Assembly: GCF_013167455.1 (NCBI RefSeq)
Contig: NZ_CP038328.1
Direction: 5' to 3' (one strand)
Source of the DNA: Escherichia coli O157:H7
GTDB lineage: Bacteria > Pseudomonadota > Gammaproteobacteria > Enterobacterales > Enterobacteriaceae
DNA: 64,000 nucleotides
Shown one piece after another: positions 47,901-50,900 of the stretch. Within the stretch, counting starts at the first letter, position 1; the number at the start of each line of letters is the position of its first letter. The position numbers are program-made.

Positions 47901-50900
47901 GCCGAATCCTGGCTGGCCCCCGTGTCCGCACTGAATGTCCCCTCCGCGCCCTGGGTGAATGCAGAACCACCACGACAGCATGGTACCAGCAGGATCCCCG
48001 CGTTATTCGGGATATACGGGAGCAGTTTTTTGGCAATATGTAAGCCCTGGCCGACACAGCCGTACTGCCCTTTGCTCAGGTCTGCCTTCGGATGATTCAG
48101 CGTACTCATATCCTGCACATCATGCAGGCAGTGGTCGGCCGGAATAATATCGTTATATCTGCATGCAGCCCCACCCGGCGTAACTGTACTGCGGCGCGCC
48201 AGCTGTTTAATGCGCGGATCCGGAGCATCGTATGAATCCGGCAGCGGAAGCCCTTCACCGTAAGCCATGGCATTGGACTGCCCGGCCAGTACGATGACGT
48301 AGTACCAATCCGGCTCAGTTGCACCACTGACCACCACATCACCTTCTGCTGTAATCGCCTGCATCAGGGTATAAGGGGTTATGGCCACCGGACTACCAAA
48401 CGGCTGCCAGCCCTCTTTCAGTTTGTGTGTCAGCTTTTCCGCAAGGTCTGACGGCGACGCCGCCCTGACAACATCATAATGTTTAAATGTCATTATTCCT
48501 CCCGGCCGGGATAGTGTATTAAATCAGATATGGAGTGGGCTGTAGTCCGGAAGCCTGAATGACACACGGGGACTACAGCCCAAGAAATGAAAAAAGGCCA
48601 CGCAGTTGCGCAGCCTGATAAACCCTGGTTAAAATCCACACGATAACAACACAACAATATCAGTATCTCATGCTATTGCCCGAACCCATTCGGGCATTTT
48701 TTTACCCATAAAAAATGCCCCTCCGGAGAGGGGCATGTTTGCATGCACATTCTTTTTCTTGCATGGTGCCGGGTGCCTCCCGGTGAATTCAGTATCAGCA
48801 CCTGAATCCGCGATTATCCCATATACCTGGTTGCTGATCGCCCCTCCGCACAGGGGGATTCACCATGCAGAAGTGTTTTTAATAAACAGCAAACAAAAAA
48901 ATCAAGCATTATGCAGGCTGTTTCTTTTTATCACCGGCCACAGCAATACCACAATGCCGCAGACCAGCACCCCATCCGCCAGCACCGACATGATTCTGCT
49001 GGTGAAATCCACCATCACCACCAGAAACAGCAGGAGTGCAGCCACAGCCAGGCGCAGTTTTACCGTCACAGGTGATTCTCCAGACGAAGACCCAGAACAC
49101 CGGCAATCTCTTCCAGCACCTTGCGCTCTTCCGGCTCAATTTCGCCGTCTGCCTCCGCAATGGCCACCGCCACATCCAGCACATCTTCCGCTTCACGCGT
49201 ATCGTGTTTCACATCCTCAATCTCGCGTAACGCGGCACGACGACCAATTTTAAAATTGGTATCCAGCTGACCGATAATGGTTGCGCTAATCGCATTAATT
49301 TCCGAGGTAAACGCAGACAACGCAGGCTGATTACGTAAGACCTGTTCGATCTTCGCTTTCTCGGATGCCTCGCATTCACCATCTGCATAGGCCACCAGGT
49401 ATGCAGCGTTAATCACCGCCTGTGCCAGATCGCGTTTCTCAAACTTTTTAATTTCCGCTGCCGCTCTGCGGGTTTTCTTTTTGAAGATTCCAAACATCGT
49501 GACGTTCCTTTGGGTGGGTGAGCCAACGCCCGGGAGCGATCTGCCCACAGAGAAAGTCACACTGACCACTCCGTAAGCTCACCCCCGAAAGGCTCTGTGG
49601 TTGATATGCGCCGGGCGTGGCGCAGATACAAAAAAGGCCCGCCGAAGCGAGCCTGGAAAATAAGTGTGGCGCGTTGTAGTGGAGTCTAACCACTGACCGA
49701 TTGCTTAGAAGGCAATTGCTCTGTCCGACTGAGCTAACAACGCATGATGCTGATAATGGACCGCCATCGGGGACTTGAACCCCGCGCAGCCAGCTTCGAA
49801 GGCTGGCGCTCTGTCCCGATGAGCTAATAGCGGTATGTAATATGGTGGCCCTTGCTGGATTTGAACCAGCGACCTGGCGATTATGAGTCGCTCGCTCTCA
49901 CCACTGAGCTAAAGGGCCGAGCCAAAAAATAATAATCAGATGAAAATCAATAATCAAGCCCTTGCCTGGATACATATCTGTCTGGCGGGAAGCCATAATA
50001 GCGGTGAAATACAGAAATAAAGTAGGACCTGCTTGAATAACCGCATTTTTCTGCTATAGCCTGTCCATATCCATGCCGGGAACATAACATATTTACAGCA
50101 ACACGCATCCGCTCTTCCAGCAACAAGCGACTGAACATGCCCCCTTCATTTTTCAGTTTTGTCTTTAACAAACTCTCACTCATATGCAACTGTAGAGCAA
50201 TCGCACCAAGCGTCCAGCTTGCTGATATATCTGTCTGAATTATCGCCCTGACTTTGGCACTTATGCTGGATAAACATCCACTTAAAAACAATGACATCCG
50301 TTCATCTGTTTCAAACAGAGACAGGCAGGCCATCATAAGAAACATATCCGTGGCCTCTCCGGAAAATCCCTGGCTGGTAATTAAAGCCGCAGCCAACGCA
50401 GGATTGTTGGGTTCCAGCAACAGGTAAAGCGGAATGTCAGTCAGACGAGTCCTCGTCAGCTTATGCTGACTTTCCAGATATTGACTTACGACGGATTCGC
50501 TGATATCGACAATTTTAACTTTGCCATAATGCATAAGGAAAAGCTCCCTGATGCATTTGGTGGCCAGAACAACTGAGCCTGGCTTAAGTGACAACGTATC
50601 CTTTTCAAGAAAAATATTAATTGGGGAGCAAACCATGATAACTGAACAGACAACAGCCATTATAATTTTACTTTCATTAGCAATTGGTTAGCTCAATTAT
50701 AGCCCCAAAAGGTAAATTATCATCAACACATAAGCAAAGGACTGACAGGTGTCGCCCCCCCACCAGCCGCCCATTCACCACAAATAAAAAGCCTTCAGGA
50801 CTGAAGGCGTCTGTAACAACCGCACTGATAGTCTGCCAGACCCGCCATAACAAGCTGGGTCAGTATTAACTGGCAGCGTTCGCGTGAAAGGTAAGTATTC

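Follow-up and report, generated by a model that had tools for sequence, protein, structure and literature searches.

A 933W-type ileZ-argN-argO tRNA cassette in an stx-negative lambdoid prophage of Escherichia coli O157:H7

tRNA genes lying just downstream of the antiterminator gene Q recur in lambdoid phages (PMC3636060), and genome papers on Stx2 phages routinely report three tRNAs beside stx2 (PMC7946995). Phages 21, SfI, Sf6 and ST64T carry tRNA genes in the same slot, between Q and the lysis genes, with a proposed role in supplementing rare codons; their tRNA species differ (Asn-GUU and Thr-UGU in SfI), the likeness drawn here being one of slot and proposed role (PMC3636060). In O157:H7, the copy number of argO goes hand in hand with the AGA content of genes gained by lateral transfer (PMC4539685). 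Here we analyze a cluster of three tRNA genes in a 64-kb stretch of contig NZ_CP038328.1 of E. coli O157:H7, hereafter the window, and compare it with its closest described relatives, the clusters of phages 933W (AF125520) and VT2-Sakai (Sp5). Taken as a whole and with its proposed mechanism included, the explanation that we consider likely is that the cluster represents a copy of the ileZ-argN-argO cassette known from 933W-like lambdoid prophages, and that it resides in an stx-negative prophage beside dusA. Its most likely role is to supplement tRNAs for codons that are commoner in acquired genes than in host genes. The cassette itself is an ordinary one, already known and annotated in RefSeq.

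Architecture of the cassette and its kinship with 933W

ARAGORN called exactly three tRNA genes in the window, every one on the minus strand. The first along that strand, ileZ (49843..49918), is of the tRNA-Ile2 type with the anticodon CAU, as judged from ARAGORN, Rfam and comparison with 933W and with K-12 ileX. It is followed by argN (49757..49833), a tRNA-Arg gene with the anticodon UCG that was assigned by ARAGORN, Rfam and the 933W comparison, and by argO (49667..49743), a tRNA-Arg gene with the anticodon UCU that was found by ARAGORN and Rfam and belongs to a minority allele whose canonical position 56 holds A. Against the Rfam model RF00005 (gathering score 29), ileZ, argN and argO scored 72.5, 56.0 and 66.7 bits, respectively; the corresponding E-values across the window, 6e-14, 2e-9 and 2.5e-12, lie far past chance, and the covariance model aligned each gene as a clean cloverleaf. 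Spacers of 9 and 13 nt separate the three genes, all of which encode their 3' CCA. The tRNA trio is real and rightly located: an earlier note on this DNA had placed a cluster at 49667-49918 and named tRNA prediction tools as the check, and the coordinates proved exact, with ARAGORN calling all three genes and Rfam agreeing. The order given there, Ile2, Arg-UCG and Arg-UCU, is correct if read along the minus strand, the strand having gone unstated.

In a megablast search of phage records, the cassette shared 93.8% identity with the ileZ-argN-argO clusters of numerous Stx2 phages, 933W, VT2-Sakai and Min27 among them, which bears out the parallel that had been drawn with the cluster of Stx phages. 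In a base-by-base alignment, ileZ is identical to 933W ileZ at 76/76 positions. The argN gene differs from that of 933W by C5 to T, which keeps a wobble pair, by T63 to C, which restores a Watson-Crick pair, and by G57 to A, whereas argO differs by C16 to T, by A37 in place of G37, by a compensatory swap of the 50-64 pair (C50-G64 to G50-C64) and by the T-loop TTAGACT, with A56, in place of TTCGAAT. Phages 933W and VT2-Sakai share with the window the three tRNAs, their order, the strand in common with Q, the position of the tRNA promoter pT, the terminator after argO, the type of Q and of the late promoter region pR'-qut-tR', and the NanS-p-type esterase gene and lysis genes downstream. Compared to 933W, the window holds TerB and DUF3927 genes in the slot of stx, a Q-to-ileZ distance of 1.87 kb instead of 444 nt, a reverse-oriented open reading frame (ORF) that separates Q from pR', and, in the interval from tR' to pT, a 65-aa ORF and an AraC-family gene. 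Homologous sequence is present in 3065/5426 complete E. coli genomes, at up to 13 places per genome, and identical copies bear the RefSeq/PGAP labels tRNA-Ile, tRNA-Arg and tRNA-Arg. Among collinear complete genomes, the best share 98.7-99.4% identity with the window across 8 kb.

A promoter scan placed the sigma-70-type promoter pT (TTGATT-17-TATTAT) at 49929..49957 on the minus strand, the same place at which pT is annotated in 933W. The last codons of the AraC-family gene contain its -35 element, and 10 nt separate the end of its -10 element from the 5' end of ileZ. For comparison with related loci, 127 clusters were surveyed, comprising the window, three loci with annotation and 120 stretches from IMG/VR that the last 25 nt of ileZ had retrieved; the survey is biased by this seed, and its counts, here and below, apply among the matches listed. 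In these, TTGCAG/TTGATT-17-TATTAT recurs at an unchanged distance across 42 different upstream contexts. Downstream of the cassette, a rho-independent terminator at 49635..49654 (minus strand), with the stem AGGCTCGC-TTCG-GCGGGCCT followed by T6, was found by terminator scan and makes a hairpin in the minimum free energy fold. In 933W, the homologous terminator is annotated upstream of stx, and most related clusters keep it after argO. Because its own pT and terminator are conserved, the cassette is, as read from the sequence, an autonomous promoter-tRNA-terminator unit of about 330 bp. The homology with 933W stops at about 49605, where 933W runs on into stx2A.

The discriminator downstream of TATTAT differs between the cassette types, being AT-rich in the window type (TTTTTTGGCTC, 49919-49935) and GC-rich in the 933W type (CCTGCGCCC, 3990-4004 of locus L002). 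This difference might confer differing growth-rate or stringent control on the two types.

Isoacceptor identity and codon demand

The three genes were compared with K-12 ileX, metT/U, argU, argQ/Z/Y/V, argX and argW. ileZ is identical to ileX at 68/76 positions versus 54/78 for metT, and bears C4-G69, C5-G68 and A73, where metT has U4-A69 and A5-U68. The pairs C4-G69 and C5-G68 are required by E. coli TilS (PMC1635315; PMC11947777). With these determinants present, and with ileX closer than metT, the assignment of ileZ as an Ile2-type tRNA is supported, and its CAU would be read as LAU after lysidine modification; the RefSeq tRNA-Ile labels likewise agree with the Ile2 identity proposed in the earlier note. 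The label "Met" that ARAGORN and several GenBank phage records give to this gene would make it an elongator tRNA-Met and the cluster a supplier of AUG rather than AUA decoding. We consider this extremely improbable, since the ARAGORN call rests on the anticodon alone, the RefSeq/PGAP and 933W records say tRNA-Ile (AUA), and the likeness to ileX together with the TilS determinants speaks against tRNA-Met. ileZ shares its anticodon loop with ileX as well; it differs from ileX in the compensatory change of C6-G67 to U6-A67, in an AxC instead of a G.U pair at 27-43 and in G instead of U at D-loop position 20, and is phage-borne with its own promoter, whereas ileX is chromosomal.

E. coli ArgRS recognizes its tRNAs by A20, C35 and either G36 or U36, with the purine discriminator A73/G73 as a minor element. 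A20 and C35 are readable in both argN and argO, whose D-loops are ATCGGGACA and AGTCGGACA, respectively, with A following G18 G19, and A20 is invariant across the listed argN alleles. At the remaining positions, argO has G73 but A56, whereas argN has C56 but U73 and C1-G72. With at most 52/79 identical positions, argN resembles none of the K-12 Arg tRNAs, and its UCG anticodon is absent among the K-12 Arg genes fetched (ACG, CCG, UCU and CCU). argO has the UCU anticodon, the anticodon loop CUUCUAA, the 77-nt architecture and A20 in common with argU; it differs from argU in its T-loop (TTAGACT versus TTCGAAT), and the two are identical at 53/77 positions here, compared to about 75% in the literature (PMC4539685).

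Codon usage was counted on heuristic, strand-curated ORF calls, with the genes from soxR to dusA in the same window as a small host baseline (16 ORFs, 4744 codons). Per 1000 codons, the host genes use ATA 3.8, AGA 1.7, AGG 1.3, CGA 3.0 and CGG 5.1 times. In the prophage at 20.9-64 kb (12,851 codons), ATA rises to 7.2 (1.9-fold, p=0.013), AGA to 5.8 (3.5-fold, p=1.6e-4), AGG to 5.1 (4.1-fold, p=1.5e-4) and CGG to 14.0 (2.8-fold, p=1.7e-7). The late structural genes, at 57% GC, reach 19.2 for CGG (3.8-fold, p=5.5e-12). The three ORFs of cargo that separate Q from the tRNAs (43% GC) use ATA 20.1 (5.3-fold), AGA 11.2 (6.6-fold) and AGG 11.2 times, and an island at 16.7-20.9 kb (39% GC) uses ATA 21.4 (5.7-fold) and AGA 17.5 times (10.4-fold). 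The comparison of prophage and host codon usage that the earlier note had proposed thus finds AUA, AGA, AGG and CGG raised in the prophage, and the argument from supply and demand holds for AUA and AGA/AGG because these are enriched relative to the host. The rare-codon rationale as first worded stands for AUA and AGA and is not supported for CGA; the strongest Arg signals are AGG (4.1-fold) and CGG. Its premise of AT-rich phage genes does not hold for the late genes at 57% GC, where we discarded it: AT-richness is confined to the 16.7-20.9 kb island and to the cargo that separates Q from the tRNAs. To say that the tRNAs are there for AT-rich phage genes is therefore too simple.

In the mechanism that we propose, pT would provide basal expression in the lysogen, and upon induction Q-antiterminated read-through from pR', past four terminator-like sites, would boost expression of the tRNAs. 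The tricistronic precursor would be cut by RNase P and 3' nucleases into three mature tRNAs. Host TilS would turn C34 of ileZ into lysidine, so that ileZ, charged by IleRS, would read AUA. Host ArgRS would charge both argN, whose UCG would read CGA and, by U-G wobble, CGG, and argO, whose UCU would read AGA and weakly AGG. The net effect would be an added capacity for AUA, AGA/AGG and CGG, which the prophage and its cargo use 2-4 times as often as the neighboring host genes (cargo up to 10 times).

Allelic variation and competing readings

The CAU-UCG-UCU architecture, with all three genes on one strand and in this order, recurs in 69/127 clusters. Of 123 ileZ copies, 110 are identical to that of the window, a figure that is biased because the last 25 nt of ileZ are fixed by the seed. 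Across the distinct alleles of the tRNAs, 94.7-98.7% of the stem cells are paired, and compensatory changes occur, which argues for structural constraint. All 21 stem pairs are intact in both argN and argO of the window, and in argN all of them are standard. At least 11 clusters carry a sister cassette, ileZ-Lys(UUU)-Thr(UGU)-Gly(UCC), in Shigella and PPompW-type prophages; it has the same ileZ in the same slot and a second tRNA built on the argN scaffold, and differs in that its downstream tRNAs are not those of the argN-argO pair. This cassette corresponds to the glyT/thrU/argO-type multicopy tRNAs of Shigella phages (PMC4539685).

Several features of the tRNAs themselves weigh against a role in codon supply. 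Position 56 is a near-universal C that pairs with G19 at the tRNA elbow. The argO of the window is the sole A56 allele among 18 distinct argO alleles of the survey, and its exact sequence occurs in 75 complete-genome records versus 1335 for the commonest C56 allele. ileZ contains a non-standard A27xC43 pair, yet one common to all alleles including that of 933W, and C1-G72 and U73 of argN are unusual. argN is also the least constrained member of the cassette, with 27 UCG alleles among the matches listed and with 33/127 clusters, full-length ones, in which it is missing. Its scaffold bears other anticodons in further alleles (loci L010-L129), UUU in five of them, apparently with C for U at position 33, and UCU in three, which suggests anticodon remoulding.

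From such variation it could be argued that the cassette travels as a mostly neutral passenger in the variable region between Q and the lysis genes, under relaxed selection in hosts with many copies, and that the A56 argO is decaying or weakened. The rarity of A56 would fit, as would the strains E2863 and E2855, which hold both this allele and canonical argO elsewhere, the up to 13 cluster copies per genome, the frequent loss or change of argN, the broken pairs or mutated T-loops of other alleles, and a neighboring TerB gene that has no need for these tRNAs. We nevertheless judge a passenger unlikely: the stem pairs of argO and argN are intact in the window and the T-stem change is compensatory, ileZ is nearly unchanged across the surveyed copies, promoter and terminator are kept across many contexts, the A56 allele scores merely 1.4 Rfam bits below that of 933W, and argO copy number correlates with AGA load (PMC4539685). 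Codon supplementation remains the preferred role of the cassette, within which the A56 argO, to go by its sequence, may be a weakened copy.

The codon statistics bring further objections to codon supplementation. They rest on a small host baseline of 16 genes and 4744 codons and on heuristic calls. CGA, the Watson-Crick codon of argN, is used 4.4 times per 1000 codons in the prophage (1.5-fold, p=0.18), which is not significant and leaves the claim that CGA is common in phage genes unsupported; for argN, supply and demand would hold solely on the condition that its UCG reads CGG too, through wobble. The TerB gene downstream contains one AGA and zero ATA, AGG, CGA or CGG in 143 codons, so that the rationale of tRNAs serving an adjacent toxin gene fails here; stxA2 of 933W has 15 ATA and 6 AGA in 319 codons. 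Moreover, the expression, processing, modification and charging steps at this locus are all ones that we infer, and a literature search found no experimental paper on the expression of ileZ, argN and argO, gene-name searches being uninformative on account of prefix matches.

Phage tRNAs can replace host tRNAs that have been cleaved by nucleases. The three tRNAs might accordingly be spares against tRNA-targeting toxins or defence systems, for instance anticodon nucleases of Arg tRNAs like colicin D, rather than a match to codons. This would account for an argN anticodon, UCG, that the host lacks while its cognate CGA is unenriched, for the fast evolution of the argN scaffold in its anticodon stem and loop with switches to UUU or UCU, and for the sister cassettes with Lys(UUU), Thr(UGU) and Gly(UCC). 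Yet no nuclease or defence gene was linked to the cassette in this analysis, the anticodon loop of argO equals that of host argU (CUUCUAA) and offers no obvious escape, ileZ is nearly invariant instead of diversifying, and the enrichment of AUA, AGA, AGG and CGG already explains retention; we therefore hold the idea to be very unlikely. Just as small is the chance we give to its narrower form, in which argN and its switching scaffold are kept as nuclease-resistant or replacement tRNAs against colicins or anti-phage anticodon nucleases that cleave host Arg or Lys tRNAs, and the A56 argO is a specialized variant and not a decaying one.

The late operon and the prophage surroundings

The 933W-type Q gene lies at 51792..52172 on the minus strand (Pfam PF06530, E=1.9e-51; 79.5% identical to 933W Q) and is labeled "antiterminator Q family protein" by RefSeq in a collinear record. 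That the cluster is downstream of Q, as the earlier note had it, is correct in that Q is upstream; the two are not adjacent, being separated by about 1.87 kb and three ORFs, one of them reverse-oriented, with pR' displaced, and a Q directly upstream was thereby ruled out. In other loci of the survey the distance from Q to ileZ extends up to 3.7 kb. The reverse-oriented ORF (51265..51711, plus strand), from the ORF list, lies between Q and pR' and encodes 148 aa; it is AT-rich (38% GC), has 4 ATA and 2 AGA in its 148 codons, matched no Pfam family, is a hypothetical protein in UTME-1 and has an N-terminus that by eye resembles a lipoprotein signal.

The candidate late promoter pR' (TTTACA-16-TATGCT, 51172..51199, minus strand) was located by promoter scan and 933W homology. 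An initial transcribed region follows at 51120..51171 on the same strand, identified by terminator scan and 933W alignment, with a qut-like segment (GTTAAGAGTGGTTACTTCGCC) and tR', whose hairpin at 51123-51135 precedes a T-run. The block 51199-51120 has 84% column identity to the annotated pR'-qut-tR' of 933W and lies about 590 bp beyond the Q stop codon, displaced by the 148-aa ORF. The homology with strain 96_1414B, which has different cargo after Q, starts exactly at this block. A short pR' transcript would stop at tR' unless RNA polymerase is modified by Q; this transcript would be the counterpart of the StxS-type small RNA (sRNA) of Stx phages. The cassette thus sits in a Q-dependent late operon, about 1.25 kb downstream of pR'-qut-tR'. 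In the interval, terminator scans found a second terminator-like site at 51083-51062 (minus strand) and another at 50808-50791, after a 65-aa ORF (50795..50992, minus strand; ORF list) that is often upstream of this tRNA cassette in related loci. The AraC-family regulator gene (49947..50660, minus strand; Pfam HTH_AraC, 2.4e-13, and HTH_18) is cargo with a promoter-like site of its own at 50696-50723; its 3' end overlaps the -35 of pT, and it has 4 ATA and 5 AGG in 237 codons. AraC-like prophage regulators of virulence and acid resistance are known in enterohemorrhagic E. coli.

Downstream of the cassette, a TerB-family gene (49066..49497, minus strand; Pfam TerB, 2.9e-16; RefSeq) occupies the slot that holds stx2AB in 933W. 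In tblastn searches, StxA2 and StxB2 had no match in the 64-kb window at E<=1e-3, and the name "Stx phage" was set aside for this prophage, as the window lacks stx. Among the matches listed, 87 clusters extend far enough downstream; in these the first recognized downstream gene is NanS-p in 26/87 clusters, TerB in 20/87, Stx2A in 10/87 and holin in 8/87, and it is unrecognized in 23/87; since Stx2A follows in just 10 of the 87, an adjacent stx does not define the cassette. The NanS-p-type esterase gene (46643-48493, minus strand) lies downstream of TerB, DUF3927 and two sRNA matches, followed by the holin, lysozyme and Rz lysis genes (43595-46195, minus strand; ORF list and Pfam). The sRNA matches, from Rfam, are a full-length AgvB anti-sRNA at 48641-48702 (plus strand, 96.5 bits) and STnc100 at 48704-48897 (minus strand, 142.7 bits); they are convergent and nearly abut each other between DUF3927 and the esterase gene.

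Other features of the window lie farther away. In the early region, a C4 antisense RNA (81.4 bits) adjoins isrK (62.2 bits) at 57501-57689 on the minus strand, which suggests a c4-icd-ant immunity module of the P1/P7 type inside a lambdoid prophage. A 405-aa ORF at 53172-54389 (minus strand) joins a RusA domain (residues 6-104) to KilA-N (residues 143-245); it has the look of a fusion by frameshift or of an error in sequencing because the two are separate adjacent genes in loci L001 and L003. At the tail-fiber end of the prophage, a tyrosine integrase gene (16746-17843, plus strand) adjoins a full-length dusA ORF (15620-16657, minus strand), and is followed by the island of 39% GC with its extreme usage of ATA (21 per 1000) and AGA (17.5 per 1000). 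Related prophages have been reported at dusA (PMC7946995). In the host flank, the Hfq-binding sRNA sraL (RyjA) matches at 268-408 (plus strand, 153 bits) beside soxR, an ordinary chromosomal feature.

Altogether, the earlier note was right in outline and needed correction on the strand, the distance from Q, the absence of stx, CGA and AT-richness. The current understanding is unchanged, because RefSeq annotates identical copies of a cassette that is textbook knowledge for Stx phages. The rare A56 of argO is a possible study case for the tolerance of change at a near-universal position. Cargo has been inserted at two places, separating Q from pR' at the one and tR' from the tRNAs at the other. 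The codon imbalance of this prophage concerns AUA, AGA, AGG and CGG rather than CGA, and among the matches listed the cassette occurs far more often without stx than with it.

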